A stretch of DNA of 64,000 nucleotides. Source: an uncultured Alphaproteobacteria bacterium. Lineage in GTDB: Bacteria > Pseudomonadota > Alphaproteobacteria > Methylaequorales > Methylaequoraceae. Position numbers and translations under genes: made by a program. A model generated the notes under the pieces. The model did no database searches. It was given only the letters and a program-made list of their open reading frames with translations, and was not told where the DNA came from. Below, one piece after another: positions 13,015 to 62,702 of this stretch (position 1 is the stretch's first letter; each line of letters opens with the position of its first letter). The stretch spans positions 35,951-99,950 of the forward strand of contig CACEWP010000003.1 in the NCBI GenBank assembly GCA_902563305.1. The letters are read 5' to 3'.

Positions 13015-13382
13015 TATCTTTTCCTAAAAAAGAAGAGACTAAGAAAGAAAAAAAATAATATTGGAAGCAACCATAACCCTAAAGTATCAAATCTTACTGG
13101 AGGCTTAAATAAGACAAAATCACCATATTTTGAATGAACAAAGTCAATTATTTGTTCTTTTGTTTCTCCTTCAGTAAGTTTTTTTCTAACTACTTTTCTT
13201 AGGTCTTTGGCAATATCAGCATTAGAATTTTGAATATCCTCGTTTTGGCAAACCAAACATCGTAATTCTTTACCAATCTCCCTAGCAATTTTTTCTAAAT
13301 TATAATCATCTAAAATTTCGTCCGGCTCGATTGCTTTTAAATCAGAGAAAATTAGATATGAAAATAATACAAGAAATTTCAT
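13014..13382 (-). CDS. ccmH: Cytochrome c-type biogenesis protein CcmH/CycL
   Basis: 122 aa with a signal peptide, the LRCLVCQNEDI (LRCxxCQ) motif and a C-terminal TM segment. Confidence 0.9.
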   Translation of the reverse strand: MKFLVLFSYLIFSDLKAIEPDEILDDYNLEKIAREIGKELRCLVCQNEDIQNSNADIAKDLRKVVRKKLTEGETKEQIIDFVHSKYGDFVLFKPPVRFDTLGLWLLPILFFFFLSLFFFRKR

Positions 13383-13879
13383 TGAAGATCCTTTGCAATA
13401 TTTTTTATAGTTTCAAGATCTCTTCGCATAACCGGACCAACATGCCTATATTTTACAACACCATCACCAACGATGAAAGTTTCAGGTATACCATAGACCC
13501 CCCATTCAATACTTAATAAACCAGTTTCATCCATTCCAATTTTTTTATAGGGATTCCCTAGTTCATTCAGCCATTTTGATAAATCTTGTTTTTTATTCTT
13601 CTTAGCAATACCATAAATTGGAATGTCATTACTTAGTTTAAGAAGTTGTTTATGTTCCACCCTACATGGAGGACACCATGATGCGAAAAAATTTATAATA
13701 GCAACATTATCATTTTTTAATTCAAAATCAGACAGATCAGAGTTGCTAAAGGTTTTAATTGAAAACTCTGGGATTTCTTTTGATATTAGATTAGAAGGTA
13801 TACTACGTGGGTCTTTTTTAAGACCTTCGTATAGTATGAAAGTAAAAAGCAGAAATATTAATGTAAAAAGATACTTCAT
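13379..13879 (-). CDS. ccmG: Thiol:disulfide interchange protein CcmG/DsbE
   Basis: 166 aa with the thioredoxin-fold motif WCPPC and GVYGIPETF. Confidence 0.9.
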   Translation of the reverse strand: MKYLFTLIFLLFTFILYEGLKKDPRSIPSNLISKEIPEFSIKTFSNSDLSDFELKNDNVAIINFFASWCPPCRVEHKQLLKLSNDIPIYGIAKKNKKQDLSKWLNELGNPYKKIGMDETGLLSIEWGVYGIPETFIVGDGVVKYRHVGPVMRRDLETIKNIAKDLQ

Positions 13880-15771
13880 CTTTTTCTTGATAAACTATTA
13901 ATGAAGGAAAAAGAACCCCCTACTGCAAGAAAAAAAACTCCAATCCAAATCCATATAGTAAATGGATTAAACCAAATTCTAGTTGTCCATTGACTTTTAT
14001 TCTCGTGAGCATCTCCAATAGCTATATATAAATCACCAAAAATAGTAGAGTGTATTGCTGCTTCTGTTGTAACTTGTTTACCAGTATTGTAAAAACGTTT
14101 CTCTGGTTTTAAAATTTTTAGTTTTTTACTATTTTCCGTTATTAAAAAGTTTCCAGTCTGGCTTATATAATTTGGTCCCTCTATCTTTGTTACTCCAAGA
14201 AATTGAATTTGAAAATTTTTAATTTTTATAGATTCGCCAATCTCTTGAAATTGGATTTTTTCCTGTTTAAGAATACTGCTACCTGTTGCTCCGATAATCA
14301 ATAATCCTATTCCTATATGAGCAAGTACTTGTGCAAAAATTTTTTTTGGAATTTTTTTCTTTAATTGAACAAATTGAAAAATTTCGTAAACAGAACTTAA
14401 GATAATCCAACAACCCAAAATGATAAATATTATAGATAAAACTGGATCTTTATAGGACAGATACCAAACAACTAGTGAAATTAGAACGAAAATTATTAAT
14501 AAAACTTTAATTCTATTTAATAATAAAATTAAATCATCTTTTCCCCATTTTATATAAGGTCCTAAAATCATTCCAATCACAAATGGGAACATAATGGGCA
14601 TTAGAATTGAGTTGAAAAATGGGGCTCCAACAGAAATTTTGGAGTTGAAAAGCACACTCGAGAATAATGGATAAATTGTTCCTATTAATATAGTAAAAGT
14701 TATTGATAACATAAAAATATTATTGAGGGATATCATCCCTTCTCTTGAAATAAGTGAAATATTAGGTCTATTAAATCTATGTGTATTATTAAAATATTTA
14801 AAAATCCCAAAAAAGCTGATTGAGGCTAATAAAGCTAAAATATAAATTCCTCTAGTTGGATCGTTCGCAAATGCATGTACTGAAACTAAAACCCCCGACC
14901 TTACCAAAAAAGTTCCCAACAAACTTAAGATAAAAGTAACAATTGAAAGTAGTATAGTCCAATTTACTAAAATATTTTTCTTATCTGCTATTACTATAGT
15001 ATGTAAAAGAGCAGATGCTGTAAGCCAGGGTAAAAGTGAAGCATTTTCTACAGGGTCCCAAAACCAAAACCCTCCCCATCCAAGTTCATAATAAGCCCAC
15101 CAACTACCAAGACCTATACCACACGTTAAAAATATCCAAGAAATGAAAACCCACGGCTTCAATATTGCTATAAAGTAGTTTTTTACACCTTCTGATAACG
15201 CAGCGACTGATATTGAATAGATAATGGAAAACCCTACATAACCAAGATAGAGAAAAGGTGGATGAATTGCTAGTCCTGGATCTTGTAAGAGTGGATTTAA
15301 GTCAGCCCCTTCAATTGGAGGAGGGAATGTTTTTTCAAATGGATTAGAAGTAAAAAGAATAAATGATGTAATTAAAAAGCAAAGAGTGTTTTGAATTCTT
15401 AAAACATTGTTTTTGAAATCAGCTGATGCAGAACTATTAATAGAGAATAAATATCCAAAAAATGTCATTACAAGTAACCAAAGAAGAATAGAGCCTTCAT
15501 GATTACCCCAGACACCAGTTAATTTGTAAATTAAGGGAAGTTGACTATTAGAGTTTTTTGATATTACGTTTAACGAAAAATCTGAAACTAGAAATGAATA
15601 TGAAAGGCATATGAAGGATGCTATCGTAAAAAAAAAAGCAAGCTTACTAAATTTTAATTCATCAAAGAAAGTATGATTGTTTTTTTTACTAACAAATAAA
15701 AGGTTAAAAAAGCTAAAACTTGATATAACAAATGTTAGAATTAAAAAGATAAGACCAATTTCAGATATCAT
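13876..15771 (-). CDS. ccmF: Cytochrome c heme lyase subunit CcmF
   Basis: 631 aa polytopic protein with the WWAYYELGWGGFWFWDPVEN tryptophan-rich (WWD) motif. Confidence 0.95.
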   Translation of the reverse strand: MISEIGLIFLILTFVISSFSFFNLLFVSKKNNHTFFDELKFSKLAFFFTIASFICLSYSFLVSDFSLNVISKNSNSQLPLIYKLTGVWGNHEGSILLWLLVMTFFGYLFSINSSASADFKNNVLRIQNTLCFLITSFILFTSNPFEKTFPPPIEGADLNPLLQDPGLAIHPPFLYLGYVGFSIIYSISVAALSEGVKNYFIAILKPWVFISWIFLTCGIGLGSWWAYYELGWGGFWFWDPVENASLLPWLTASALLHTIVIADKKNILVNWTILLSIVTFILSLLGTFLVRSGVLVSVHAFANDPTRGIYILALLASISFFGIFKYFNNTHRFNRPNISLISREGMISLNNIFMLSITFTILIGTIYPLFSSVLFNSKISVGAPFFNSILMPIMFPFVIGMILGPYIKWGKDDLILLLNRIKVLLIIFVLISLVVWYLSYKDPVLSIIFIILGCWIILSSVYEIFQFVQLKKKIPKKIFAQVLAHIGIGLLIIGATGSSILKQEKIQFQEIGESIKIKNFQIQFLGVTKIEGPNYISQTGNFLITENSKKLKILKPEKRFYNTGKQVTTEAAIHSTIFGDLYIAIGDAHENKSQWTTRIWFNPFTIWIWIGVFFLAVGGSFSFINSLSRKR

Positions 15772-16216
15772 TAGCTTTTTCCTTTATGGATTCTAAATCT
15801 TTGATTTCTGGTGGCATGTAATTTTCATCATGTTTAGCTAAAACAGTATTGGCATTAAAAAGTCCTTTATTAACTATAAAACCTTCAACAACCACTCCTT
15901 GACCTTCTCTAAATAAGTCAGGTAATATCCCTATATAGGAAATAATGATCTCTTTTTCAAAATCAGTAATTACAAAAGAAATTTCCTCCATATTTATCCC
16001 ATTTATTTCTTTTATTTTTCTATTTAAACTTTTTTCTTTTACCATACCACCGACCCTTATAGTTTTTTCGGAACTAATTTCTTTCTCAAAAATTTCTGAA
16101 GGGGAGTAAAAAAATATTAGGTTATCTCTCAGATTAATAAATATGATGAAGCAACCCATAGAGAAAAGTAGAAATGAAACAATTATTGTAATTAATCTTT
16201 TATTTTTTTTCTTCAT
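15761..16216 (-). CDS. ccmE: Heme chaperone CcmE
   Basis: 151 aa with an N-terminal anchor, RVGGMV and the LAKHDENYMPPE heme-binding His motif. Confidence 0.9.
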   Translation of the reverse strand: MKKKNKRLITIIVSFLLFSMGCFIIFINLRDNLIFFYSPSEIFEKEISSEKTIRVGGMVKEKSLNRKIKEINGINMEEISFVITDFEKEIIISYIGILPDLFREGQGVVVEGFIVNKGLFNANTVLAKHDENYMPPEIKDLESIKEKANDI

Positions 16217-16371
16217 TTTTTTGATAGATTTATAAGTTCTTTTTCAAGTCTTTTCGTTTTTATATTACTAAAGATGAAGATGAGAAATATAATTAAGAAT
16301 ACAATTAAATACGATGATAAAACGTAAGAGAAGTGGTCTTCTGATTTTATAAAGTTAATAAAATAATTCAT
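16213..16371 (-). CDS. ccmD: Heme exporter protein CcmD (small ORF missed by the track)
   Basis: My hand translation of the minus strand gives MNYFINFIKSEDHFSYVLSSYLIVFLIIFLIFIFSNIKTKRLEKELINLSKK (52 aa, one TM segment). Its ATG overlaps the ccmC stop (ATGA) and its TGA overlaps the ccmE start (ATGA). This is the expected ccmD position between ccmC and ccmE. Confidence 0.75.
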   Translation of the reverse strand: MNYFINFIKSEDHFSYVLSSYLIVFLIIFLIFIFSNIKTKRLEKELINLSKK

Positions 16372-17090
16372 TTTTCAACTCTATTATATTTTATTACATC
16401 AATTTTTCTCTGGATTATCTCACCTTTCAACCTAATTAAAAGAATTGAAATGAAGAAGAAGAAAAAAGAAAAAGTCATTATAAAAAGTGGAACAAGCATT
16501 GATGGATCAATAGATGGTGATGATAATTTCGAGATACTGGCGGGCTGATGAAGAGTACTCCACCAATTGACTGACCATTTTATGATGGGTAAATTAACAG
16601 CACCTACTACTGCAAGAATTGAAGCATATTTGTCGGCTTTAGATTTATCATCATAAGAATTATTAATAATTATTAGTCCTAAATAAATAATAAATAATAT
16701 TAGTACAGATGTCAGACGTGCATCCCATACCCACCATGTTCCCCAGGTTGGCTTGCCCCATATTGATCCAGTCACCAATGTAGCTATAGTAAAGCAAGCT
16801 CCGATCGGTGCACAGGACCTTGAAATTAAATCAGCTAGTGTATGCCTTAAAACTAACGAGGAGATGCTACAAATGACTATTATAGAATAAATCATTAATG
16901 AAAACCATGCACATGGGACATGAATATACATTATCCTAACTGTTTCACCTTGAAGATAATCTGGAGGGCTATTAAAGAAACTAAAAAATAATCCAATTAC
17001 TAACAAAAACAAAGCTAAATGAATGGTAACTGGTTGAAATTTTTCTGTAAACTTCTGAAATTTCAATGGATTAGCTAATTTAAAAATCAC
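16368..17090 (-). CDS. ccmC: Heme exporter protein CcmC
   Basis: 240 aa with the WGTWWVWDARLTS WWD motif. Confidence 0.95.
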   Translation of the reverse strand: MIFKLANPLKFQKFTEKFQPVTIHLALFLLVIGLFFSFFNSPPDYLQGETVRIMYIHVPCAWFSLMIYSIIVICSISSLVLRHTLADLISRSCAPIGACFTIATLVTGSIWGKPTWGTWWVWDARLTSVLILFIIYLGLIIINNSYDDKSKADKYASILAVVGAVNLPIIKWSVNWWSTLHQPASISKLSSPSIDPSMLVPLFIMTFSFFFFFISILLIRLKGEIIQRKIDVIKYNRVEK

Positions 17091-17755
17091 TTATTTATCT
17101 CCCTCATAATTAATTTACCAGCATATAAACATACTGGTAATGTAATAAAAAAAATTCCAATTAAAATCAATAATTGGTCTCCAAAATATTTTGACGGTTC
17201 AGCAAAATTTTCTGAAGTTGTTGTAAAGATAACTATGGGAATGAAAAAGGGAAGAATTATCACAAATTGTACTATTTTATTTCTTTTGAGTTGAATTGAA
17301 AATAAAGCAGATAGTAATGAAATTAAAGTTAAACTTGGAGTAGATATAAAAATATTCAAAAAAAGTTTTAGTACATCATTGTAAGACAATTTAAAGAAGA
17401 TTAAGATAATTGGCATTAAAAAAACTGCAGGAATCAATATAATTAACCACATTGCTAAACTTTTGCAGAGAAAAATTGTTTCCTCCGAGAAACCAAGAAA
17501 TTGTAATTCCTTCAGACTTCCATCGCTATAATCTTCATGAAGAAAATTTTCAGAAACCAGCATAATAGAAAAAATCAAGACAACCCAAACAACAGGTTTG
17601 TAAAAAACAATTATGTTAGTGAGATCATCAAGGGCAAAAACAAAAATTAGTGAGGATGTTATAAAAAAAGTAGAAAAAGAAAAGAAGATTGAAGAATTAT
17701 TCATACAAATTCTAATTTCTCTTTTTAATAACTTAAAAAAATCTTTCATTATCAA
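17087..17755 (-). CDS. ccmB: Heme exporter permease CcmB
   Basis: 222 aa with 6 TM segments, positioned between ccmA and ccmC with 4-nt overlaps on both sides. Confidence 0.85.
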   Translation of the reverse strand: MIMKDFFKLLKREIRICMNNSSIFFSFSTFFITSSLIFVFALDDLTNIIVFYKPVVWVVLIFSIMLVSENFLHEDYSDGSLKELQFLGFSEETIFLCKSLAMWLIILIPAVFLMPIILIFFKLSYNDVLKLFLNIFISTPSLTLISLLSALFSIQLKRNKIVQFVIILPFFIPIVIFTTTSENFAEPSKYFGDQLLILIGIFFITLPVCLYAGKLIMREINK

Positions 17756-18423
17756 ATATCATCCCAGGAATTAAACTTGAAACTTTTTTGCTTATCATTT
17801 TTTTTAGGTTTTTTTATAAAGATTTTTTTTGAAGCTTTTAATTCAAAATTAATATGACTTGATAAAATGATTGATCCGTTATTTTTAATATGATTGTGAA
17901 TTAAAGCTTTGCACTTGTTAGCAGAGGAAGAATCTAGTCCATTAAACGGTTCATCAAGAAGCCATAATTTTGTCTTACTCAAAAGAAGCTTAGTCAATGA
18001 AACTTTTTTCCTCTGTCCATGGGATAAATTTATTACTTGATTTTGACTTATTTTGTGTAAATTAAAAAATTTAAGAGATTCGTAAAATTCATTTTTGCTG
18101 ATGTCACTCTCTAAGAGAGAGAGCCAATTAGTTAAATTTTCTTCAACAGTTAAATAATCTTTTAGAGAATCTTTATGCGGAATATAAGTAAATTTTTCTT
18201 TTTTATGAGATCCTAACTCTTCAAGAGGTGTTTTATTTATTTTAATTGTTCCTTTTTCTGGTTTTAGTATACCAGCTGCAATGTCTAAAAGACTACTTTT
18301 TCCAACACCATTGTCTCCTATCAAAATGATTATTTGAGATTTTCTTAGTTTTAAATTAAAATTATCAAAGATTAACCTTTTATTTCTGCGAAAATAAACT
18401 GATATAAATTCTAATACCATCAA
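17752..18423 (-). CDS. ccmA: Heme exporter ATP-binding protein CcmA
   Basis: 223 aa with Walker A GDNGVGKSS, signature LSHGQRKK and Walker B LWLLDEP. Confidence 0.9.
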   Translation of the reverse strand: MMVLEFISVYFRRNKRLIFDNFNLKLRKSQIIILIGDNGVGKSSLLDIAAGILKPEKGTIKINKTPLEELGSHKKEKFTYIPHKDSLKDYLTVEENLTNWLSLLESDISKNEFYESLKFFNLHKISQNQVINLSHGQRKKVSLTKLLLSKTKLWLLDEPFNGLDSSSANKCKALIHNHIKNNGSIILSSHINFELKASKKIFIKKPKKNDKQKSFKFNSWDDI

Positions 18424-18453
18424 AAAACCTTATAATAAACATTAGAGAAGAAA

Positions 18454-21051
18454 ATGAATCTAACAACTACAAATTTTACAGACAACCTTAAAATTGAAAA
18501 AGATGAGTATACCTTTATTAGCTTAAAGAAAGCAGAATCAAAATTTAAATTTGTTATAGATAAAATACCTTTTACTTACAGAATACTTTTAGAAAATTTA
18601 ATTAGAAAAAAAGGTAAAACCAATACAAGCATAAAGGACTTAGACAATCTTATAAATCAAAAAACTGGAGAGGAAATTCTTTTCTGTCCAAGTAGAGTTT
18701 TAATGCAAGATTATACCGGTGTTCCTGCTATAGCAGACTTAGCAGCCATGAGAGATAAATTTAAGAATGATGGGAATGATCCTGAGAAAATAAATCCTTT
18801 AGTTCCAGTGAGTCTAATTATTGATCATTCAATAAACGTAGATAGTTATTCTAAGAAAGATTCCTTAAGCATAAATGTAAAAAAAGAATATGAACGAAAT
18901 AGTGAGAGATATAAATTATTGAAATGGGCCCAAAGTTCCTTGAAAAATTTCCTTCTATTTCCTCCTGGTTCTGGTATTTGTCATCAAATTAACCTTGAGT
19001 TTTTAGCTCAGGTTGTTCAAACCGAAAATAATTTTTTATTTATGGACTCTGTTGTTGGAACTGATAGTCATACAACAATGGTCAATGCTTTATCTGTTCT
19101 CGGGTGGGGTGTTGGTGGAATTGAAGCCGAGGCTGTGATGTTGGGTCAGCCAATATCTATGCAAATTCCTGAGGTGGTGGGAGTTAGGTTGTCAGGAAAT
19201 TTGAAAGATGGTTTAACAGCTACAGACTTAGTTTTGAATATAACTGAAAAACTTAGAAATATGAATGTTGTAGGGAAGTTTGTTGAATTTTACGGACCAG
19301 GACTTGAGTTCTTAAATTTATCAGAACGATCAACAATTTCAAACATGGCACCAGAATACGGAGCAACTTGTGGAATATTTCCCGTGGACAAAGAAACACT
19401 TTCCTATTTAAAAATAACTGGAAGAAAATCTAAGCAAATTGATATTGTAGAAAAATATTCTAAAGAACAGTGTCTATGGCATTACGGTTCGGAGAAAATA
19501 AACTATAATCAAAATCTTGATATTGACTTAAGCTTGATAGAGCCATGTATATCAGGTCCTAAAAGGCCTCAAGATAGGATCAATCTTATTGATGTTCCAA
19601 AAAAGTTTAAAGATCATTTGAACGGCGAAGAAAAATCTTTTAAAAATGTAAAAAATAAACTCTCGCACGGTAAAGTGTGTATTGCTGCAATAACCAGCTG
19701 TACGAATACATCGAACCCTACGGTATTAATTATGGCTGGTTTGATAGCAAAAAAAGCAGTTGAGATTGGATTAACTATTCCATGGTGGGTTAAAACGTCA
19801 CTTGCACCCGGAAGTAAAGTTGTTAGCAAATATTTGGATGAATCAAATCTTTTGCAATATCTCGAAAAGCTAGGTTTTAATATTATTGGTTATGGTTGTA
19901 CTACTTGTATAGGTAATTCAGGACCATTAGATGATAAAGTGAATAACGAAATTATTCAGAATAATTTAAATGTTTGTAGTGTAATATCAGGGAATAGAAA
20001 TTTTGAGGGAAGAATTCACCCGCACATCAAATCAAATTTTTTAGCATCACCTCCTCTTGTTATAATCTATGCAATTGCGGGAAGAATAGATATTGATCTT
20101 TCCAAAGATCCTATAACTATTCACAAAGGTAAGGAAGTGTTTCTAAAAGATTTATGGCCACCTAAATCTGAAGTAGAAAATATAATAAAAAAATGTGTTA
20201 AAAGAGATTTTTACGAAAAAAATTACGCAACAATCTTTAAAGGTGACAGTGAGTGGGAGAAATTAAATATTAAAAAATCTCCAACTTACGACTGGTCATT
20301 AAATTCAACTTATATTAAGAAACCACCATTCTTGGATAATAAAAAAAATGACCTTTATCATGAAATTAAAGCTAGGCCATTAATCATTCTTGGAGATTCT
20401 GTTACTACAGACCATATATCACCTGCTGGAGTTATAAAAGAGGATAGTTCTGCTGGAAAATATTTAAAAGAGAGACAAGTTCATTTAGACGATTTTAATT
20501 CTTATGGAGCAAGACGAGGTAACCACGAGATAATGGTAAGAGGAACTTTTGCTAATATAAGAATTAAAAATAAAATGATTGAGCACGCAGGTGGATATAC
20601 AAAACACCATGAATCGGAGATTGTAGAGGAAATTTATAAAGTTGCGAACAAATACAGAAAAAAAAATATACCATTAGTTGTGCTTGCTGGTAAAGAATAT
20701 GGAACAGGCTCATCTAGAGATTGGGCAGCAAAAGGAACCAAACTTCTTGGAGTAAAAGCAGTAATTGCTGAGAGTTTTGAGAGAATTCATAGATCTAATC
20801 TTGTGGGAATGGGTGTGTTGCCACTTCAAATCAAAGATACAGATAAAATTAATTTTGGTGGACAAGAAATTTTTCATATTGGGAAACTTTCAGACTATTT
20901 GATTAAACCAAATATTAGAAAAAGAATAAAAGTTATAAAAAAAAATGGTGAACAATTTCTAATTAATGTGATTTCAAGAATTGATACCAAGAATGAGATA
21001 AAATATTTTGAAAGTGATGGAATCCTTCCATATGTATTGAGTAATATTTAA
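18454..21051 (+). CDS. acnA: Aconitate hydratase A
   Basis: 865 aa with GTDSHTTM, ITSCTNTSNP, GCTTCIGNSG and the swivel-domain GSSRDWAAKG. Confidence 0.97.
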   Translation: MNLTTTNFTDNLKIEKDEYTFISLKKAESKFKFVIDKIPFTYRILLENLIRKKGKTNTSIKDLDNLINQKTGEEILFCPSRVLMQDYTGVPAIADLAAMRDKFKNDGNDPEKINPLVPVSLIIDHSINVDSYSKKDSLSINVKKEYERNSERYKLLKWAQSSLKNFLLFPPGSGICHQINLEFLAQVVQTENNFLFMDSVVGTDSHTTMVNALSVLGWGVGGIEAEAVMLGQPISMQIPEVVGVRLSGNLKDGLTATDLVLNITEKLRNMNVVGKFVEFYGPGLEFLNLSERSTISNMAPEYGATCGIFPVDKETLSYLKITGRKSKQIDIVEKYSKEQCLWHYGSEKINYNQNLDIDLSLIEPCISGPKRPQDRINLIDVPKKFKDHLNGEEKSFKNVKNKLSHGKVCIAAITSCTNTSNPTVLIMAGLIAKKAVEIGLTIPWWVKTSLAPGSKVVSKYLDESNLLQYLEKLGFNIIGYGCTTCIGNSGPLDDKVNNEIIQNNLNVCSVISGNRNFEGRIHPHIKSNFLASPPLVIIYAIAGRIDIDLSKDPITIHKGKEVFLKDLWPPKSEVENIIKKCVKRDFYEKNYATIFKGDSEWEKLNIKKSPTYDWSLNSTYIKKPPFLDNKKNDLYHEIKARPLIILGDSVTTDHISPAGVIKEDSSAGKYLKERQVHLDDFNSYGARRGNHEIMVRGTFANIRIKNKMIEHAGGYTKHHESEIVEEIYKVANKYRKKNIPLVVLAGKEYGTGSSRDWAAKGTKLLGVKAVIAESFERIHRSNLVGMGVLPLQIKDTDKINFGGQEIFHIGKLSDYLIKPNIRKRIKVIKKNGEQFLINVISRIDTKNEIKYFESDGILPYVLSNI

Positions 21052-21063
21052 AATCTTAATTTA

Positions 21064-22569
21064 ATGAAAAATGAAAAGAAAATTTCAGCTTTCTTAGGTC
21101 CGACTAATACTGGAAAAACCTATTCTGCAATCCAGCGGCTCTACAAGTATAGATCAGGTGTAGTTGGTTTCCCACTAAGACTTTTGGCTAGAGAAAATTA
21201 TGAGTTTGCTAAGAACTTCTTACCAATTAATAAAGTTGCACTGATTACTGGTGAAGAAAAAATAATACCAAAAAATGCTAAATATTTTTTTTGTACAGTT
21301 GAATCAATTCCAGAAAACCTTGATTTTGAATTTGTTGCAATAGATGAAGTTCAAATGGCAGCTGATTATGAAAGAGGATATATATTTACAGAAAAAATTT
21401 TTAATAAGCGTGGTACTAAAGAGACTTTATTCTTAGGTTCCAGAAGTATAGAAAATATACTTTTGAAAATACACCCAAAGATAATAATTAACAAAAAGCC
21501 CAGATTATCAAAACTATCTTATATCGGTTATAAAAATTTGACTCGTCTTCCAAAAAGATCTGCTGTAATTGCATTCTCTCAGATAGATGTCTATGAAATA
21601 GCTAATAAAATCAAACAATCGCATGGTGGGGTTTCTATAGTTTTGGGTGCTTTGTCACCGGAAGTAAGAAATGCTCAGGTCAAATTGTTTGAAGATGGAA
21701 AGGTAGATTATATTGTAGCGACAGATGCTATCGGTATGGGATTAAATTTAGATATTAAAAATATTTTTTTTTCAAGTATTAAAAAATTTGATGGATACCA
21801 TGAAAGATTCCTAACATTTGATGAAATTTCTCAAATCTCAGGAAGAGCTGGAAGATTTTCGAATGATGGTTTTTTTGGTACCACATGTAATTTAAAAAAA
21901 CTTGATAACGAGACAGTAAACTTTGTAGAAAATTATGAATATACTGAAGTGAAGAAAATTTATTGGAGAAATCATAAACTTAATTTTAGTGAACCAAAAG
22001 AACTTGTAAAATCTTTATCACTAAAGCCGAAGGAAAATTATTTGAAGCTTAAAAAAGATGGAAGTGATCAGAGATACTTAAAAATTTTTCTTGATGATAA
22101 TGAATGTAAAATTAGAACAATAAATAAAAAAATTTTAAACATATTGTGGGAGGTTTGCAGTGTTCCAGATTATTCGAAAAATCTAGATGAGTATCATACA
22201 AGATTTTTAAAGAAAATATTCTTTTACTTAATAAATGAAGGTGAATGTATCCCTGAATCATGGGTGAAAAGAAATTTACGTGACATCAGTAGATTTACAA
22301 AAAAAATTTCCGAATTAAATTATAAAATCTCTCAAATTAGAACATGGTCTTTTATTTCATTTAAGAATAGATGGATTGAAAATAATCACAAATTTCAAAA
22401 TAAGGTTAAAGAAATTGGTACAAAATTATCCACAAAGCTTCATGAAGAACTTATTTTAGAATTTATAGGTGAATATAAAAACTTTGAAATGAAAAAATCT
22501 AAAAACCTAATACAAGAAAATAACGTTGTGAGATTAGAGGAAAAAAAGTTTTTTTTGGAAAAGAAATAA
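21064..22569 (+). CDS. SUV3/MgpS-like ATP-dependent helicase, N-terminal 495 codons of a frameshifted gene
   Basis: Walker A LGPTNTGKTYSA, DEVQ box AIDEVQM, motif VATDAIGMGLN, and the SUV3_C-like ILWEVCSVPDYSKNLDEYHTRFLKKIF. The zero frame stops at 22567-22569, just after an A7/T8 run. Confidence 0.85.
   Translation: MKNEKKISAFLGPTNTGKTYSAIQRLYKYRSGVVGFPLRLLARENYEFAKNFLPINKVALITGEEKIIPKNAKYFFCTVESIPENLDFEFVAIDEVQMAADYERGYIFTEKIFNKRGTKETLFLGSRSIENILLKIHPKIIINKKPRLSKLSYIGYKNLTRLPKRSAVIAFSQIDVYEIANKIKQSHGGVSIVLGALSPEVRNAQVKLFEDGKVDYIVATDAIGMGLNLDIKNIFFSSIKKFDGYHERFLTFDEISQISGRAGRFSNDGFFGTTCNLKKLDNETVNFVENYEYTEVKKIYWRNHKLNFSEPKELVKSLSLKPKENYLKLKKDGSDQRYLKIFLDDNECKIRTINKKILNILWEVCSVPDYSKNLDEYHTRFLKKIFFYLINEGECIPESWVKRNLRDISRFTKKISELNYKISQIRTWSFISFKNRWIENNHKFQNKVKEIGTKLSTKLHEELILEFIGEYKNFEMKKSKNLIQENNVVRLEEKKFFLEKK
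22542..22548 (+). other. A_AAA_AAG heptamer in the zero frame of the helicase (candidate -1 frameshift site or indel site)
   Basis: The zero-frame codons read gaA AAA AAG ttt ttt ttg. This is the same heptamer as the E. coli dnaX -1 slippery site. It lies inside the only 46-nt window (22524-22569) where both frames are open. Confidence 0.4.
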
Positions 22570-23408
22570 TTGGAAACTTAGCAGGCTTAAAATTTATTAT
22601 TAATGCAAATTTTAAAAGAAGTAAAAATATTTTTAACAACAAAATTTTAGATAAAAGTCTGAATAGTTTAAGTATTCAAATTAAAGATTATTTTGTAAAG
22701 TCAAGTTTGAGTTCATTTCAAATATTAATTGATGGAAAGATTATTTGGGAAAAAAATGTCATTGGATGTTATATTAAAGGTAAAGACTTATTTGAACCAA
22801 AAATCACCATTTACTTAGATGGGTATTTCATACAATTCGAAAAACAAATAAGAAATAAATTAGAACAATTACTAGATTTCTTGAAAAAAAATGAACTTCC
22901 CTTCTTTTTAGCGTTTAAGGAAAACAGAAAAATTTCTTTAGCCTCGAGAGCTATTAATTTTTGTTTACTAGAAAACCTTGGTCATTGTGAAAAAAAAAAA
23001 ATAGATAATTTTTTAAAGCAACTGACAGTTGATGAGTTTAAAAGATATAAAAATCTCGGTTTTAGGGTTGGAACAAATTTTTTTTACTTCAAAACAAATA
23101 AATTAAGTAATTTTAAACAGATGTTAATAAATATTTTTTTTAAAGTTGATATGAAGCATTTTATTACGGAATCAATTTTTATTTTCGATTCTAATAGAAA
23201 TGCCAAGAAGAGACTTTTACTATTTAAAAAGCTAGGTTTTTATTTACTAAAAATAGATAAACAACATTTTCTTATTCATTATGAATACTATGAAAAACTT
23301 ATTAGCAAAGTTTTCTTTTTCAAAAAGAAGCAAAAATTAACTTTTCTACCAAAAAATAAATTTGAAAAAATTTTTTTTAATAACCCTAGAACAATCGCTC
23401 TAAATTAA
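22548..23408 (+). CDS. SUV3/MgpS-like helicase, C-terminal 286 codons in the -1 frame
   Basis: The frame is open from 22524. Read-through after a -1 shift gives ...VVRLEEKKVFFGKEIIGNLAGLKFII...ILIDGKIIWEKNVIGCYIKGKDLFEPKITIYLD. These are two repeats of the pattern I recall from the C-terminal region of long alphaproteobacterial helicases. The track's TTG start at 22707 is probably not a real start. Confidence 0.7.
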   Translation, partial: VFFGKEIIGNLAGLKFIINANFKRSKNIFNNKILDKSLNSLSIQIKDYFVKSSLSSFQILIDGKIIWEKNVIGCYIKGKDLFEPKITIYLDGYFIQFEKQIRNKLEQLLDFLKKNELPFFLAFKENRKISLASRAINFCLLENLGHCEKKKIDNFLKQLTVDEFKRYKNLGFRVGTNFFYFKTNKLSNFKQMLINIFFKVDMKHFITESIFIFDSNRNAKKRLLLFKKLGFYLLKIDKQHFLIHYEYYEKLISKVFFFKKKQKLTFLPKNKFEKIFFNNPRTIALN

Positions 23409-23460
23409 AATGTAATGTTATTCTCTTGAATAACTTTCTTATCTGTTCTATATAAACCAT

Positions 23461-23799
23461 ATGCCTTATATTGTGAAAGATGCTTGCGTCAAATGTAAAT
23501 ATATGGATTGTGTCGAGGTCTGCCCAGTCGATTGTTTTTATGAAGGCGAAAACTTTTTAGTTATTCATCCCGACGAATGTATAGATTGTGGTGTCTGTGA
23601 ACCTGAGTGCCCAACTGAAGCTATAAGCGATGATAGCTGTGATGACGCTCAGAAATGGCTTGATATTAATAGGGAATACGCCGAAAAGTGGCCTAATATA
23701 AATAAGATGGGAACGCCGCCAGAAGACAGAGAAGAATGGAAGGATGTAAAAAATAAATTTGAGAAACATTTTAGTCCTAATCCTGGAAAAGGTACCTGA
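23461..23799 (+). CDS. fdxA: 7Fe ferredoxin (3Fe-4S + 4Fe-4S)
   Basis: 112 aa. [22 protein letters not shown] and [12 protein letters not shown] are the FdxA-type cluster motifs. Confidence 0.95.
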
Positions 23800-23870
23800 T
23801 TTTTTATCTTTTAATTCTTACAATATTAATATATAGTTCACGATTAATTTAATTTTATTGGAGACATTTT

Positions 23871-24371
23871 TTGAAAAAAAAAGAATTGGAGCTAGTTATT
23901 GGGGATATGGTTGTCTACCCTACATATGGAGTGGGTGAAATAGAAAACTTTGATTCTTATGATATAGACGGCTCAAAACAAGACTTTATATTAATTAATT
24001 TCAAACAAGATAAAATGAAACTGAGAATTCCCAAGGATAAGGCTTCAAGTTCTGGTTTAAGAAAGCTGAGTAATAAAAACAGACTTTCTAGAGCTCTAGA
24101 TGTTTTAATAGAAAAACCTGCAATTAAAAAGGACATGTGGATTAAAAGGGCAAAAGAATATGAAAAAAATATTAATAGTGGTGATCCTGTCCTAATTGCC
24201 GAAGTCGTTCGAGATCTTCATAAAAAAGAAGATTCCTTAGAACAACAATCTTATTCAGAGAGGCAAATTTATCTAACTGCATTAAATAGGCTTAGCAACG
24301 AATATGCGGCAGTTCAAAATTTAGAGAAAAAGTCTGCAAAGAACAAGCTTGAGGACTTACTTAATCAGTAA
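23871..24371 (+). CDS. carD: CarD/CdnL family RNA polymerase-binding transcription factor
   Basis: 166 aa with GDMVVYPTYGVGEIENF and RIPKDKASSSGLRKL. It has a TTG start preceded by GGAGA. Confidence 0.9.
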   Translation: MKKKELELVIGDMVVYPTYGVGEIENFDSYDIDGSKQDFILINFKQDKMKLRIPKDKASSSGLRKLSNKNRLSRALDVLIEKPAIKKDMWIKRAKEYEKNINSGDPVLIAEVVRDLHKKEDSLEQQSYSERQIYLTALNRLSNEYAAVQNLEKKSAKNKLEDLLNQ

Positions 24372-25801
24372 ATAGTTTTAATTTTATTGTTTGTTTCAAC
24401 TTTTCTGTTTTTAAGATCGTTAAGAGTCCTAAATATTTCTTCAGAGAACATTGTTTGAAGTTTTGATTTTGCTAAAATATCTTCAAGGAAATTAGAATTT
24501 GATGTTGCGGATATAACTTTAATTTCTGGTGCAATATAAAGCTTTAATTCCTCATCAGATATTCTCTTAAAACTCAAAACAATTTTTTTAAATTCTTTCT
24601 CATATGTATTCATCTCTTCTTTTGAAGTCATTAATAAAAACCTGTAGATCATTTTTTCATTATCATTAAGGGTTGCAAAAACGAAATATTTTTTATTTTT
24701 AATAAACTTACCCATTGTAATTTTAAAATTATTATTGGTAAAATTCTTAATATCCAATATTTTTTTTTTAGATATATTAACCCAACTGCTGACATAATTA
24801 ATATTATTTTCTTTAGATGACTGATCAAGATTGAAAATTACCTTGGTTTTTTTATCTGTTGTTCCTATCAGGGCTTTAGGGGTGTTTAAAAAATAAAAAA
24901 TGTTTCCAAAAGAAAATTTTATTTTTAATGGTTTATGTATAAAGCTATTTTTTATGAAGAACCCTTCCTCTTCTTTATGACCATAATTAATACCGTCAAT
25001 CTTTTTTAGAAATACATCTTTTCCAATTATTGGGTTTAATTGAGTGTTTCCTTTATAACTTTCAATAACTTCTTGAACTCGCTTTGAGGAATTCGGGTGA
25101 GTTTGTAGAAGTTCTGAAACTTTATTTTCAATTTTGTAGATTCTTTTTTGAATATTTGAGAACTCTTCCATTAATTTTAGAAAGCTTGCCATTTCTTTGG
25201 CATCAAATCCTGCACGATTCATATATCTGACCGCCAATTGATCAGCTTGATATTCTTGTGATCGTGAATAAGATAAAAGGTACAGTTGAGCTGACTGTCC
25301 TAAAAAATTATTAAGGAAAGCATTCTTTGAGAATATGTTTAGAACTTGAAGAAATAATCCTGTACCAACTGTCTTTGTATATCTTCTAGCAGTGTGTCTT
25401 GCAGTAATATGGCCAATTTCGTGTGCTATAACCCCAGCTAATTGCGCTTCGTTTTGACATAAATATATTAGCCCTCTTGTTAGGTATACATAACCTCCGG
25501 GTAAAGCAAAAGCATTTATTATTGGAGTATCTAATATTGTGAATGTAAATTTTTTTTCAGACAATTCAGATGTGCTTACAAGAAAATTGCCCAAACTTTC
25601 TATATAGTTTTTTAATCTTTTATTTTGATACTCTCCACCAAACTGAGTGATTATTTTTTCATGCTCGCTTTTGCCTATTGAATCTTCTTCAGCTTCTGAC
25701 AATAAGTTAAATTCATTTTGACCTGTCGCAGGATTTTTTTGACATGAATAGCTTAAAAAAGATATCAAAAAAATAGAAAATATAAGTCTTAAATATTGCA
25801 T
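24365..25801 (-). CDS. M48 family zinc metalloprotease, lipoprotein
   Basis: 478 aa with the lipobox-like LSYSC, the HEIGH zinc motif (AHEIGHITARH) and QEYQADQLAV. Confidence 0.85.
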   Translation of the reverse strand: MQYLRLIFSIFLISFLSYSCQKNPATGQNEFNLLSEAEEDSIGKSEHEKIITQFGGEYQNKRLKNYIESLGNFLVSTSELSEKKFTFTILDTPIINAFALPGGYVYLTRGLIYLCQNEAQLAGVIAHEIGHITARHTARRYTKTVGTGLFLQVLNIFSKNAFLNNFLGQSAQLYLLSYSRSQEYQADQLAVRYMNRAGFDAKEMASFLKLMEEFSNIQKRIYKIENKVSELLQTHPNSSKRVQEVIESYKGNTQLNPIIGKDVFLKKIDGINYGHKEEEGFFIKNSFIHKPLKIKFSFGNIFYFLNTPKALIGTTDKKTKVIFNLDQSSKENNINYVSSWVNISKKKILDIKNFTNNNFKITMGKFIKNKKYFVFATLNDNEKMIYRFLLMTSKEEMNTYEKEFKKIVLSFKRISDEELKLYIAPEIKVISATSNSNFLEDILAKSKLQTMFSEEIFRTLNDLKNRKVETNNKIKTIY

Positions 25802-25855
25802 TGAAGGTATTTATTTTTATGTGGTATCATAATTCTTATGTAATTATAATGTTTT

Positions 25856-26428
25856 TTGAGAATGTTTAAAATTTTGTTTATTTTATTGTTTCTGTCTTCT
25901 TCGGAACTTTTAGCTAATAAAAAAACTGGAAGATTATCTTTTGGAGGAGGAATCCATAATTTTATGAAAAATGGTTACTCAGTTTGTGTTCAACCGGGAG
26001 CTGGCGGATGTGATCCAAATTCAAGCACGAATGCAGTGCTTCCAGTTCCCTTTAAGGATATTTCAACTGTATTTAGTTTTGAGTATTTTGCAAAAAGGAA
26101 TATCTTTAAAATACTTAAACCATTCATTGGTTATAACCATACTACAGATGATGCAAGTTACAGTTATTTTGGTCTAAGTGCTGACCTTTTCTTTGGTGAT
26201 TGTAAATGTTACATAGTAACCCCAACTTTAGCGGCTGGTTGGTATATAAATGGTGATGAAATTAGGTTGGGTCATAAAGTTGAGTTTAGGAGTGGAGGAG
26301 ATATCTACTACAGATTCAAGAATAACGTTAGAATAGGTGTAGGTTTTTATCATATTTCAAACGCAGGTTTAGGTGATTCTAATCCAGGAGCTGAACAGGC
26401 TATACTTAAATATCAGATACCATTTTAG
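25856..26428 (+). CDS. PagL-like lipid A 3-O-deacylase / acyloxyacyl hydrolase outer-membrane protein
   Basis: 190 aa with a signal peptide, beta-barrel-like alternation and the C-terminal HISNAGLGDSNPGAEQAILKYQIPF (HxSN...NPG.E motif). The probable ATG start is at 25862. Confidence 0.7.
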   Translation: MRMFKILFILLFLSSSELLANKKTGRLSFGGGIHNFMKNGYSVCVQPGAGGCDPNSSTNAVLPVPFKDISTVFSFEYFAKRNIFKILKPFIGYNHTTDDASYSYFGLSADLFFGDCKCYIVTPTLAAGWYINGDEIRLGHKVEFRSGGDIYYRFKNNVRIGVGFYHISNAGLGDSNPGAEQAILKYQIPF

Positions 26429-26443
26429 TTTTGTTAGAGAAAG

Positions 26444-26971
26444 ATGTATAACTACAATATGAAAGCTTTTTATTTGTCTGTTGCGCTATTGATATCTTCT
26501 ATTAGTGTTAGTGCAGACGCCAAAGATTCTTCAAGATTTTCAATAGGTCTCGGAATTTTTAATTACATGGAAGATGGTTCTCCTCCTCATAATGATCAAT
26601 CAGGTATGATGAATTTTGAAATACATAGTGGTAGAAAAATGTTTAATTTAATAAAACCTTTCGCAGGATTTTTAGGTACCAACGAAAATGCTTATTATGC
26701 TTATGGTGGATTTGGGATCGATGGATATTATGGAAGAAAGAAAAATTTTATCATGACACCAAGTTTGGCTTGTGGATACTACAAAGATGGGAATGAGATT
26801 AAGGCGGGAAACCCTCTTGAGTTTTATATTGGTATAGATATGTTTTATAGATTTAAAAATAACGCTAGAATTGGTGTTGGTATTTTTCATATTTCTAATG
26901 CAGATAGTGGGAAGAAAAACCCAGGATCCGAAACTTTAGTTTTGAAATATCAAATACCTATTGGAAAGTAA
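26444..26971 (+). CDS. PagL-like lipid A deacylase paralog
   Basis: 175 aa, a tandem paralog of the preceding gene. It shares YRFKNN.RIGVG..HISNA..G..NPG.E....KYQIP. Confidence 0.7.
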   Translation: MYNYNMKAFYLSVALLISSISVSADAKDSSRFSIGLGIFNYMEDGSPPHNDQSGMMNFEIHSGRKMFNLIKPFAGFLGTNENAYYAYGGFGIDGYYGRKKNFIMTPSLACGYYKDGNEIKAGNPLEFYIGIDMFYRFKNNARIGVGIFHISNADSGKKNPGSETLVLKYQIPIGK

Positions 26972-26975
26972 ATAA

Positions 26976-27051
26976 GGTCTTATAGTTAAATTGGATATAA
27001 CAAATCCCTCCTAAGGATTAATTTCTGGTTCGAATCCAGATAAGATCGCCA
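26976..27051 (+). tRNA. tRNA-Arg (anticodon CCT)
   Basis: Hand-folded cloverleaf. The acceptor is GGTCTTA/TAAGATC and the D arm is GTTA-AATTGGATA-TAAC. The anticodon arm is AATCC-CTCCTAA-GGATT and the T arm is TCTGG-TTCGAAT-CCAGA. The discriminator is G and CCA is encoded; total 76 nt. Confidence 0.9.
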
Positions 27052-27061
27052 AGATAATGAA

Positions 27062-27667
27062 ATGAATGATGAGTTAAAAAATTTCTTCGAATCCCAAATT
27101 AGTGAACATTTACAAGTAATTAATAGAACAAAAACAACTGTTGAAAAAAACTTTCTGAATGTTTTGGAAATATGCCATGATTCAATTAAAAATGGAAATA
27201 AGATTATTTTTTTCGGTAATGGAGGAAGTGCAGCAGACGCTCAACATCTCTCTACTGAATTGACCGTTCGATTTTCTAAAAATAGGAAGTCAATACCCGC
27301 ATTGTCTCTAGTAACAGACACATCCACATTATCAGCAATTGGAAATGACTTTGGCTTTGAATCTATTTTTTCAAGACAGCTTGAAGCATTAGGGAAAGAA
27401 GGAGATGTTGTTATAGGTATTTCAACCTCTGGAAAGAGCCTTAATGTTATTAAGGGATTAAAGTATGCTAAACAGAATGGAATGAAATCAATTGCTTTAA
27501 CTGGAAGACACACAAAAGATGTTGAAAAAATAACAAATGAAATTATATCTATACCTGCTATTAATACATCAAGAATTCAAGAAGCACACATACTTATTGG
27601 TCAAATGCTATGTAATGCTCTTGAGTTTAAACTAGGATTATCACCTTTAGTAGACGAAGAACCTTAA
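27062..27667 (+). CDS. gmhA: Phosphoheptose isomerase (SIS domain)
   Basis: 201 aa with FFGNGGSAADAQHLSTEL and GISTSGKS. A DiaA-like function cannot be excluded. Confidence 0.85.
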   Translation: MNDELKNFFESQISEHLQVINRTKTTVEKNFLNVLEICHDSIKNGNKIIFFGNGGSAADAQHLSTELTVRFSKNRKSIPALSLVTDTSTLSAIGNDFGFESIFSRQLEALGKEGDVVIGISTSGKSLNVIKGLKYAKQNGMKSIALTGRHTKDVEKITNEIISIPAINTSRIQEAHILIGQMLCNALEFKLGLSPLVDEEP

Positions 27668-27673
27668 ACTACA

Positions 27674-28372
27674 ATGATTTTAAAAAAAATTTGCACAAAC
27701 TGCTTTATCATAATTTTTTTTTGTTTAATAACATCATGTAAGTTAGATAAAAACTACTTTCCTTACAACGAGGGTAGAAAAGTTTTCTATGATGTTTTTT
27801 TTCAAGATAAAGAAAAAAAAAAAAAATATTATAGACAAAGTTTTTTTTTCCTTCCTAGGATTGATAACGCTGTACCCGTACTAAAAAACGACGGAGAAAT
27901 CACTTTTTATGTTTTCGAGTCAAAAGGTATCTTAAAAATTAATAGAGAAGAATTTTTTTCATCTGAAAATACTTATGATTCAGAAAATGATAATAGTCAA
28001 TTATTAATAGCTTATCCGATCCATAAAAATACAGAATGGGAAACAAATGATAAAACTACTATTCAAATGAAGTTAGGATACGATAGATTTTACAACACAA
28101 ATTTACCATTCAAATTAAAGAATAAAATTGTGAGTATAGACGAGACTATATCAATTAAAGGAAAGAAAATAAAAAACTGCATCAAAGTTTCTGGATATGG
28201 AAAAACAAGCTACTACCCAGATCCAACTTTAGGTAACATAAATATTGAAATTTTCTCAACAACCTGGTTTGCAAAAGGTCTAGGGATGGTAAAATATAAA
28301 AGAGAGGAAAAATCGGACTCAGAAACTATGGGGAATATAATTTACGAAAAAACTATGTTAATAAATGACTAA
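27674..28372 (+). CDS. Hypothetical lipoprotein
   Basis: 232 aa with the lipobox LITSC after a hydrophobic N-terminus. It contains an in-frame A14 tract (KEKKKKYY). No family was recognised. Confidence 0.65.
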   Translation: MILKKICTNCFIIIFFCLITSCKLDKNYFPYNEGRKVFYDVFFQDKEKKKKYYRQSFFFLPRIDNAVPVLKNDGEITFYVFESKGILKINREEFFSSENTYDSENDNSQLLIAYPIHKNTEWETNDKTTIQMKLGYDRFYNTNLPFKLKNKIVSIDETISIKGKKIKNCIKVSGYGKTSYYPDPTLGNINIEIFSTTWFAKGLGMVKYKREEKSDSETMGNIIYEKTMLIND

Positions 28373-28397
28373 TTAACTATATAATATTTAGGGAAGT

Positions 28398-44948: not shown

Positions 44949-44967
44949 TGAATTAAAAAAAATTAAA

Positions 44968-56896: not shown

Positions 56897-56901
56897 ATTA
56901 A

Positions 56902-58308: not shown

Positions 58309-58349
58309 CTTTCTTCACTTTTAATCGGAGTGGAAAGAGACAAACGGAT

Positions 58350-58395
58350 GCGTTCCTTCGGTTTCAAACCTACTTCCGACCACAATGGTTGAACG
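58350..58395 (-). promoter_or_regulatory. Candidate glutamine riboswitch aptamer (glnA RNA motif-like)
   Basis: The minus strand reads CGUUC-AACCAUUGUGGU-CGGAAGUAGG-UUUGAAA-CCGAAGGAACGC. It has P1 CGUUC/GAACG, two mini-hairpins, and the conserved CGGAAGUAGG and CCGAAGGAACGC blocks as I recall them for Rfam glnA RNA. It sits 41 nt upstream of the ATG at 58308. Confidence 0.7.
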
Positions 58396-58620
58396 TTTAT
58401 TAAAGATTATAACTAATCAATTTCTAAAGCAAGAGTTATTTGGTTTGTGGTAACGAAGGACGGGTGACAAATTCTCTCAATTAATAATAACAATAAATCT
58501 TTTTTACTGAGTTAATTTGTAAAAAACAAGGTTCACAATGTAAATGTCTATAACAATAATAAATCTTATTGAATATAATTTTTAATAAATTCTTAAACTT
58601 CTACTCGCATTGATTTTAGA

Positions 58621-61194: not shown

Positions 61195-61848
61195 TTAAAT
61201 ACCTAAAATTTTTTGAATAAAATTTTCACCAAACTCTAGACCTTCATTATCGATACCATGACCAAGATTCTCCTGAATACGATAATCCACTACAAAACCT
61301 AAGCTTTTTAATTTCTCATAAGATTTTACTGAATTATCTGAATCAATAACTTCGTCATTTTTTCCGTGATAGAGTCTAATTGGAAATTTAGAGGATATTG
61401 AACTGTCAAAATCATTATCTAAGAAAAGAAGACCAGAATATGCTAGTAAACCGGCACATGGATTTTTTCTTTTACAAAGATGATATAATCCCATCATGGC
61501 TCCTTGTGAGAAACCAAAAAAAAGTATTTGTGAATCATTCAAAGCAAATTTAATTTTAATTTTATCAACTAATTCATTAAAAAATGGTCCTGCTTTAATA
61601 AGCCCCTCACTAATTTTATCGGGAGCAATTGAAGTTAAATCAAACCATTGGAATGCGCCATCACTCCAATCACACTTAAATGGTGCGTTTGGAGAAATAA
61701 ATATAGTATTTCTTAATTTATCCTTCCATTTTAGCCCAATATTAATTAAGTCGTCAGCATTAGCTCCATATCCGTGAAGAAATATTAATGCGTTTTTTAT
61801 AGAATCTCTTTTTTCTGGATAAACAATTTGTCCATTAAAATCATTCAT
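61195..61848 (-). CDS. Alpha/beta hydrolase (phospholipase/carboxylesterase family)
   Basis: FLHGYGAN, the nucleophile elbow GFSQGAMM and GHGID are present. I place the start at ATG 61848 (MNDFNGQ), which overlaps the NUDIX gene by 8 nt, rather than at 61911. Confidence 0.85.
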   Translation of the reverse strand: MNDFNGQIVYPEKRDSIKNALIFLHGYGANADDLINIGLKWKDKLRNTIFISPNAPFKCDWSDGAFQWFDLTSIAPDKISEGLIKAGPFFNELVDKIKIKFALNDSQILFFGFSQGAMMGLYHLCKRKNPCAGLLAYSGLLFLDNDFDSSISSKFPIRLYHGKNDEVIDSDNSVKSYEKLKSLGFVVDYRIQENLGHGIDNEGLEFGENFIQKILGI

Positions 61849-62602
61849 AATTATACCCGTAATTAAATATTTTTTTAATTTCAACCATAGCTTTTTTTGA
61901 TATGAAGTCACCTTCTTTTAAAATCAGAAAGTCAAGAAAAGGGATTATACAATTTGCTTTAAGTTCTTTACTCTCTAAAATTTTATAAATCTTATCAATT
62001 TCAATAGATATAAACTCATCCACCTCGCCGTCTTGATTTTTAAATTTCATATCACTTGTTTTTTCTAGATGATAGTTAAATATAATTGAAGAATTAAATT
62101 TTTTTTCTTCGTTGTGCATATAATGAACTGTAGAACCTTTTTTTGCTAAATAAATCTGATTAAAATTCAAACCCGCTTCTTCATAAGCTTCCTTTTGTAA
62201 ATTTTCTTTAATTGACAGATTTATTGGCTGGCCCCCTGCAACCGGGTTATCATAAAATCCTGGGAATTTCTCTAGTTTACTCGATCTTTTTGCAAAATGA
62301 ATAATTGTTGAGTTTTTATATTTACTCCAAATATTGCAATGCACCCCATATGCTGGAAAGCCAAATAAAGATAAATCTTTTCTATTAATTTTGAATTTCT
62401 TACCTCTACAAAATTTTTGTTTGTGATCGAATCTAATTTTTGGTTTTAAAGAGTTAAAGTCAAAAATTGGACAGTATTCAATTGGTTTAATCTTTGAAGA
62501 AGATTCTAGTGAATAACCTATTACATGTTCAATATTTATTTCAGAATTAGAATTTTGAAAATATTTTGAAATTCCCAAATTATCTCTATTTAACCAACCC
62601 AC
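61841..62602 (-). CDS. NUDIX hydrolase
   Basis: 253 aa with the Nudix box GGQPINLSIKENLQKEAYEEAGL. Confidence 0.85.
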   Translation of the reverse strand: MGWLNRDNLGISKYFQNSNSEINIEHVIGYSLESSSKIKPIEYCPIFDFNSLKPKIRFDHKQKFCRGKKFKINRKDLSLFGFPAYGVHCNIWSKYKNSTIIHFAKRSSKLEKFPGFYDNPVAGGQPINLSIKENLQKEAYEEAGLNFNQIYLAKKGSTVHYMHNEEKKFNSSIIFNYHLEKTSDMKFKNQDGEVDEFISIEIDKIYKILESKELKANCIIPFLDFLILKEGDFISKKAMVEIKKIFNYGYNYE

Positions 62603-62702
62603 AATTTTATCATTAAATTTGATTGGTTTAAAATTTTTTAAATCAAATAAAAATAACTGTTTTAGTAGATGTATGGCTAAATCTAGAGTTTTTTTTTACC
62701 CA

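Follow-up and report, generated by a model that had tools for sequence, protein, structure and literature searches.

Does a helicase gene that changes reading frame at a textbook slippery heptamer record a programmed shift of the ribosome, or the loss of a single base? The question is raised by a 64 kb stretch of DNA from an uncultured alphaproteobacterium (contig CACEWP010000003.1; 28.4% GC), which we call the window and in whose own numbering all coordinates are given. In this window the open reading frame (ORF) of a Suv3-like helicase ends shortly after an A_AAA_AAG, and the rest of the protein is encoded in the -1 frame. We conclude, with a probability of about 0.9, that this is an ordinary single-ORF gene for a helicase of ~781 amino acids (aa) with one A missing from an A8 tract, and that this loss is unprogrammed and confined to this record. 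An earlier note on the same DNA had left four explanations standing, namely programmed -1 ribosomal frameshifting, transcriptional slippage, a recent deletion of 1 nt and a homopolymer error; the presence of A8 in matching metagenomes favours the last two jointly.

Results

Reading frames at the locus

The scan of open frames shows a densely coded, AT-rich window, in which the helicase locus has the following parts.

21064..23408, + strand: whole Suv3-like helicase gene (DExQ-box, superfamily 2, SF2), one gene of 781 codons if the A run is given back its missing base
21064..22569, + strand: upstream frame of 501 codons, with the helicase core and middle region; stop TAA at 22567-22569
22541..22547, + strand: A7 tract, site of the one-base loss; A8 in matching environmental contigs
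22542..22548, + strand: heptamer A_AAA_AAG in the zero frame and in X_XXY_YYZ phase, a by-product of the deletion
22549..22556, + strand: T8 tract, Phe-Phe in the true frame (G TTT TTT TTG G becomes GTT TTT TTT GG)
22548..23408, + strand: C-terminal 286 helicase codons in the -1 frame, intact and without further lesion, aligning to the C-termini of the orthologues

The -1 frame stays open over 295 codons, 22524 to 23408, and overlaps the 501-codon ORF by exactly 46 nt. In the zero frame the codons of the overlap are GAG GAA AAA AAG TTT TTT TTG GAA AAG AAA TAA, so that it carries GA A_AAA_AAG TTTTTTTT; the A7 tract, the G at 22548 and the T8 tract follow one another directly, and the zero-frame stop lies 7 codons downstream of the heptamer. 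A -1 shift on AAG gives ...RLEEKKVFFGKEIIGNLAGLKFII..., a continuous product of 781 aa in total. Every coordinate of the earlier note was reproduced, from the end of the ORF to the -1 frame and its 46-nt overlap, and the in-phase A_AAA_AAG with its T8 neighbour and the continuous fused protein of ~781 aa are likewise there as it described them.

Stops occur off-frame in the window at 0.108 per codon, and the probability that 295 codons stay open by chance is ~2.5e-15: the downstream -1 frame is certainly genuine coding sequence. It is not an independent gene, because start codons come only late in it: there is none for 183 nt (the first is TTG at 22707), and the first ATG comes 597 nt in.

The helicase and its orthologues

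By its sequence matches, the gene is predicted to encode a Suv3-like DExQ-box SF2 helicase. The fused protein matches Pfam DEXQc_Suv3 (PF22527; E 4e-26, residues 4-133) and Helicase_C (PF00271; E 1e-9), as well as the structures of Suv3 (PDB 6f4a; E 2.6e-40, residues 6-267) and human SUPV3L1 (3rc3 and 7w1r; E about 3e-34), whose helicase cores match residues 4-272. Its translation shows a Walker A motif, GPTNTGKT, and a DExQ box, IDEVQ. No specific NCBIfam model was found for it, the helicase matches being weak, below threshold and without an equivalog name, and no Pfam family covers the C-terminal 500 residues. A Suv3-like helicase spanning both frames, as proposed earlier, is backed by these Pfam and PDB matches and by the orthologues; the C-terminal repeats proposed with it did not appear when a profile of the last 292 residues was compared with itself, the best off-diagonal probability being 0.3%.

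A protein search with the fused sequence, covering 5.8 billion proteins, returned dozens of full-length proteins of 770-800 aa with query coverage of 95-100%. The closest orthologues are P0001 (781 aa, 86% identity, 100% coverage) and P0002 (779 aa, 81% identity). Orthologues of 777-781 aa are matched from one end to the other, the fused product covering 99-100% of them. When it is aligned with 65 full-length orthologues, the junction is colinear and shows no indel against the two closest, both of which read RLEEKK[VI]FFGKE. The end-to-end comparison suggested in the earlier note has therefore turned up single-ORF orthologues of 777-781 aa, and the alternative that it set against its own reading, orthologues of about 500 aa followed by a separate gene, does not describe these full-length single ORFs. 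The gene order (ABC ATPase, aconitase, helicase, ferredoxin, CarD, M48 peptidase) is common to the window and its relatives. With GTDB representatives the helicase shares only 75% and 69% identity and the ferredoxin 89%; these representatives are all single-cell genomes of uncultured marine alphaproteobacteria. The relatives also include metagenome contigs.

The residues at the position of the A run differ across the family (EKK, KKK, GDT, DKK, EKN, KRT and others). Given this variation, the A run is not a conserved element; it simply follows from the use of Glu and Lys codons where the genome is AT-rich.

The missing base

At the DNA level the difference comes down to one position. In a 2.3-kb alignment of the whole gene with the orthologous loci L001 (85% nucleotide identity) and L002 (82%), the window has just one gap, a single base within the A run. 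The four orthologous loci read as follows at the site.

L001: GAA GAG AAA AAA GTT TTT TTT GGC, A6, in frame; T8 also present
L002: GAA GAA AAA AAA ATA TTT TTT GGG, A9, in frame
L004: GAA GAA AAA AAT ATT TTT TTT GGT, A7, in frame
L003: GAA GGT AAG GAA ATT TTT TTT GGG, no A run, in frame at the site

The run is thus A6, A9, A7 or absent among these loci and every one of them is in frame; with one A restored, the window reads GAG GAA AAA AAA GTT TTT TTT GGA. The view that both frames are one helicase gene broken at its A/T runs is confirmed by the orthologues and by this alignment. The comparison of tract lengths among orthologues, also suggested before, agrees with a break at these runs and speaks against a conserved signal.

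Removing one A from a GAA AAA AAA GTT string necessarily leaves GA A_AAA_AAG TTT in the old frame. Since a one-A deletion creates it automatically, the heptamer carries no evidential weight for programmed frameshifting; it is a consequence of the deletion and no independent evidence for recoding. The window's open frames, 60.9 kb in all, contain 15 in-frame copies of A_AAA_AAG; none of the genes checked among those with the 14 other copies is split. Sense-strand A runs of at least 8 number 84 in these frames.

Matching marine metagenome sequences

Contigs from nine public metagenome runs (X3, X5, X12, X14, X17, X25, X26, X27 and X28), which stem from six studies (P3, P5, P9, P12, P16 and P17), have an extra A behind 22540, giving A8. 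For eight of the nine runs (all except X26) the contigs, over 129-293 nt, show zero substitutions relative to the window, so that the extra A is the sole difference; that of X3, for example, crosses the site from 22335 to 22627. The X26 contig has the same extra A and two substitutions. A contig from a tenth run, X20, aligns without gaps, has 2 mismatches and ends at 22556, which is the pattern that an A8 read forced into an ungapped alignment would give and which hence fits A8. A7 was seen in none of the ten runs with contigs at the site, and the T8 tract has the same length in the metagenome contigs.

The surroundings point the same way. Over the 20 kb from 12001 to 32000, 661 contig pieces at least 98% identical to the window were obtained from four runs, and the base in the A run is their only indel relative to it. 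Among public runs the highest word share reaches 0.43 for 1.1 kb and 0.55 for 10 kb, and no run contains the whole window. Around the site no indexed public run has more than 1 of the 4 sampled 31-mers, a result that would fit A7-spanning words existing nowhere else, the identity of the sampled words not being given. No RNA run holding the locus was found among the public runs. In the natural population the helicase gene is intact, and the window departs from that sequence at this place by a single homopolymer unit. According to the earlier note, reads with a run one base longer would have made this a simple assembly error; the longer run is indeed seen in independent matching metagenome contigs, which comes close to that condition, though these contigs are not the genome's own reads.

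Two lengths of one coding homopolymer, one in frame and the other out of frame, might also be the mark of a phase-variable (contingency) gene, in which reversible changes of the A tract switch the helicase on and off. We consider this very unlikely. Only the ON length, A8, was seen in nine runs and the tenth fits it, with the reservation that these contigs are 2-3x deep and that Logan loses rare variants. The tract is also unconserved in the orthologues, and the gene encodes a conserved housekeeping-type helicase in a likewise conserved aconitase-helicase-ferredoxin-CarD neighbourhood, not a surface or restriction-modification function.

Recoding signals

The 92 nt after the heptamer (22549-22640) fold at -4.1 kcal/mol, against a mean of -9.3 for dinucleotide shuffles (z = +2.17), and 200 of the 200 shuffles fold at least as well. 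No 3' stimulatory stem-loop or pseudoknot was found in these 92 nt by this comparison. The sole element resembling a Shine-Dalgarno (SD) sequence is GAGG at 22537-22540, which ends 1 nt before the heptamer, a spacing too small for -1 stimulation. In dnaX the SD-like element sits about 10-14 nt upstream of the heptamer.

These results bear on another explanation of the locus, a dnaX-type programmed -1 frameshift that would produce a 501-aa core and a 781-aa full-length helicase in a set ratio. The perfect zero-frame A_AAA_AAG in a 46-nt overlap, with a stop 7 codons on and a continuous transframe product, speaks for it. We nevertheless regard it as extremely improbable, and the corresponding option of the earlier note falls with it: orthologues and natural population, the latter with A8, encode one ORF, neither heptamer nor A run is conserved, copies of the heptamer abound in this genome, the sequence downstream shows no stem-loop or pseudoknot, and GAGG ends 1 nt before the heptamer instead of ~10 nt.

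Slippage of the RNA polymerase could restore the frame by another route, and selection might then maintain the frameshift in the genome, as in Buchnera and Blochmannia. A genome of 28.4% GC with many homopolymers, and a break exactly in an A7-G-T8 context, would suit such a rescue. However, bacterial transcriptional slippage has been described for runs of 9 or more A/T (PMC5009743), and A7 and T8 are both below this length; the tract would be short for efficient slippage. Moreover, the frameshift is not maintained, population and relatives both being in frame, which also tells against transcriptional slippage as the earlier note had offered it. Selected rescue of this kind has next to no probability in our assessment.

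Assembly quality and broken copies elsewhere

If the record were generally prone to homopolymer errors, other genes should be broken too. The window has 268 homopolymer runs (A/T of at least 7 or G/C of at least 6) in 64 kb, up to A14, and only the helicase frame is broken. A scan of all its long open frames returned only one other late-start frame, 61841..62695, for which Pfam gave no sign of a fragment of a neighbouring gene. Such a one-off discrepancy is compatible with a residual miscall or with a genuine private mutation.

Two database proteins were considered as recurrences of the break and rejected. P0086, of 502 aa, at first suggested another genome with the same 501-aa core; it lies on contig L003, a metagenome assembly in which the helicase is split elsewhere. 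P0054 (583 aa, on the 1.2-Mb contig L006) is split at yet another position, owing to assembly errors: in L006, a long-read contig polished with pilon, the helicase is split into 583+178 aa and the aconitase into 79+790 aa. The split genes lie as follows.

368-2979 and 3001-5318 of L006: the helicase and neighbouring aconitase loci
3154-5509 of L003: helicase, split into 235+502 aa

Members of the helicase cluster with 417, 248 and 589 aa also lie on long contigs. The database copies of the helicase are broken at other positions, in visibly error-prone assemblies.

As L006 and L003 illustrate, frameshift artefacts are frequent in these AT-rich genomes.

Other features of the window

Several observations made along the way concern other genes. 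A glutamine riboswitch aptamer (RF01739; 58.3 bits, E 2.8e-10) at 58347-58397 on the minus strand stands directly upstream of a gene for a circularly permuted ATP-grasp protein (56902-58314, minus strand; CP_ATPgrasp_2, E 3e-153) and not of glnA. Two further genes follow on the same strand (55937-56905 and 55131-55967, both minus), and the riboswitch-headed set may be a glutamine-regulated operon.

Contigs of three metagenome runs (X1, X2 and X5) join 13031 to 16006 and so skip 2974 nt that hold ccmH, the thioredoxin-like ccmG, ccmF and part of ccmE. Because only 20 letters fit on the shorter side, the join might reflect low-complexity sequence that matches by chance, and not a true deletion variant.

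At 43992-45546 on the plus strand, the match between a 318-aa protein and the RgpF (rhamnan synthesis) profile covers only the profile's first 201 of 503 positions. A Methyltransf_24 protein comes next, and the stop-to-stop frames of the two overlap by 50 nt. Finally, a methylmalonyl-CoA mutase-like ORF at 62706-63995 on the minus strand matches positions 269-512 of the MM_CoA_mutase profile and has a B12-binding domain; it runs past the right end of the window, by which it is cut, and is not truncated.

Discussion

Our results suggest that this helicase gene is an ordinary one, and that the break in its reading frame stems from one homopolymer. In the intact gene the A8 tract codes for Glu-Lys-Lys (GAG GAA AAA AAA GTT), and the loss of one A places the C-terminal 286 codons in the -1 frame. 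The loss could be a homopolymer miscall, made in sequencing, amplification or assembly, or a very recent deletion by replication slippage in the sequenced cell or strain, and between the two we see roughly even odds. Because the downstream frame has no second lesion, the event is either very recent or unreal.

Suppose that the A7 is real. The truncated helicase of 501 aa would then be the main product, and a small full-length fraction might arise through unassisted -1 slippage of the ribosome or through stuttering of the RNA polymerase on A7/T8. We put the chance of this version of a single-base loss, a real A7 with mostly 501-aa helicase and a little full-length protein made by leaky, unprogrammed slippage, somewhat short of even. 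It would sit well with a window that is otherwise without indel discrepancies or split genes, in an assembly that is not generally prone to homopolymer error, and A8 tracts are mutational hot spots; the window's ORFs contain 84 sense-strand A runs of that length or longer. A_AAA_AAG is highly shift-prone in Escherichia coli, the most so among the heptamers tested, partly due to the single tRNA-Lys of this species, a condition shared by about half of known bacteria (PMC5009743). On the other hand, no public run shows A7, stimulators were not found, and A7 is shorter than the runs of at least 9 A/T known from bacterial transcriptional slippage (PMC5009743). The only tRNA genes in the window are tRNA-Arg(CCT) and tRNA-Leu(CAA), neither of them for Lys.

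Some points weigh against our reading of an unprogrammed, record-specific loss, or limit how far it goes. Sequencing error and real mutation are inseparable here, the best public run holding 55% of the 10-kb words. The metagenome contigs are shallow (2-3.3x each), and although they stem from the same population, this need not mean the same strain; rare variants are lost from Logan contigs, so a minority natural A7 allele could have gone unseen. The otherwise clean window, with no other split gene or indel, somewhat lowers the prior for a sequencing error. Lastly, given how shift-prone the heptamer truly is in E. coli (PMC5009743), some full-length product is plausible if the A7 is real.

A further reading would be an A7 that is real and persists in a sub-lineage, where a functional mixture of 501-aa core and full-length helicase arises from unassisted -1 slippage on the new A_AAA_AAG or from stuttering of the RNA polymerase on A7/T8. 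This is very unlikely in our view; if true, a recoding site would have been caught at its birth in a streamlined marine alphaproteobacterium. An A7 that is real and leaky would make a minor example of adventitious frameshift compensation.

For annotation, loss of one A means that 21064..22569 and the piece that a gene caller would take from TTG 22707 to 23408 are to be described as a single helicase gene that has a homopolymer discrepancy of one base, and neither as a short helicase followed by a hypothetical protein nor as a recoding event. The trap is a general one in genomes below 30% GC. Strings of Lys-Lys and Glu-Lys codons form runs of A7 to A9 there, and any one-base deletion in such a run before a G puts a textbook A_AAA_AAG at the frame junction.

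Comparison with known systems

As a protein, the window helicase resembles Suv3/SUPV3L1 and the alphaproteobacterial orthologues named 'helicase-related protein' (MgpS-like) in DEXQc_Suv3, Helicase_C, GPTNTGKT and the DEVQ box, and shares with the marine alphaproteobacterial orthologues a long conserved C-terminal extension. It differs from the Suv3/SUPV3L1 family in its C-terminal 500 residues, which have no Pfam family or detectable internal repeats.

With E. coli dnaX the site has in common an identical heptamer in the same phase and a zero-frame stop soon after. In dnaX the shift gives the shorter product, is conserved, and is stimulated by an SD-like element and a 3' hairpin. The window has the slippery heptamer in an overlap, whereas it lacks a 3' hairpin or other structure, its GAGG is wrongly spaced, the motif is unconserved among orthologues, and relatives and natural population are unshifted.

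Frameshifts in the poly(A) tracts of endosymbionts are retained across lineages. An AT-rich genome of the small-genome style and an A-tract frameshift in a conserved gene recall these cases, and the same rescue would be conceivable. According to work cited in PMC5009743, poly(A)-tract frameshifts of Buchnera and Blochmannia are rescued by transcriptional slippage. Their tracts are longer, whereas the window has A7, and the frameshift of the window is absent from all related and matching sequences, population and relatives being in frame, instead of being kept in the lineage.

The closest likeness is to the homopolymer-length frameshifts of genome records, which come from miscalls in sequencing or assembly or from mutation by replication slippage and lead to genes being called as frameshifted pseudogenes. 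There too a single-base indel in a mononucleotide run of at least 7 is the only lesion and the downstream frame is intact, and here the matching sequences have the in-frame length. From such frameshifts the window case differs in nothing of kind: the finding is ordinary.

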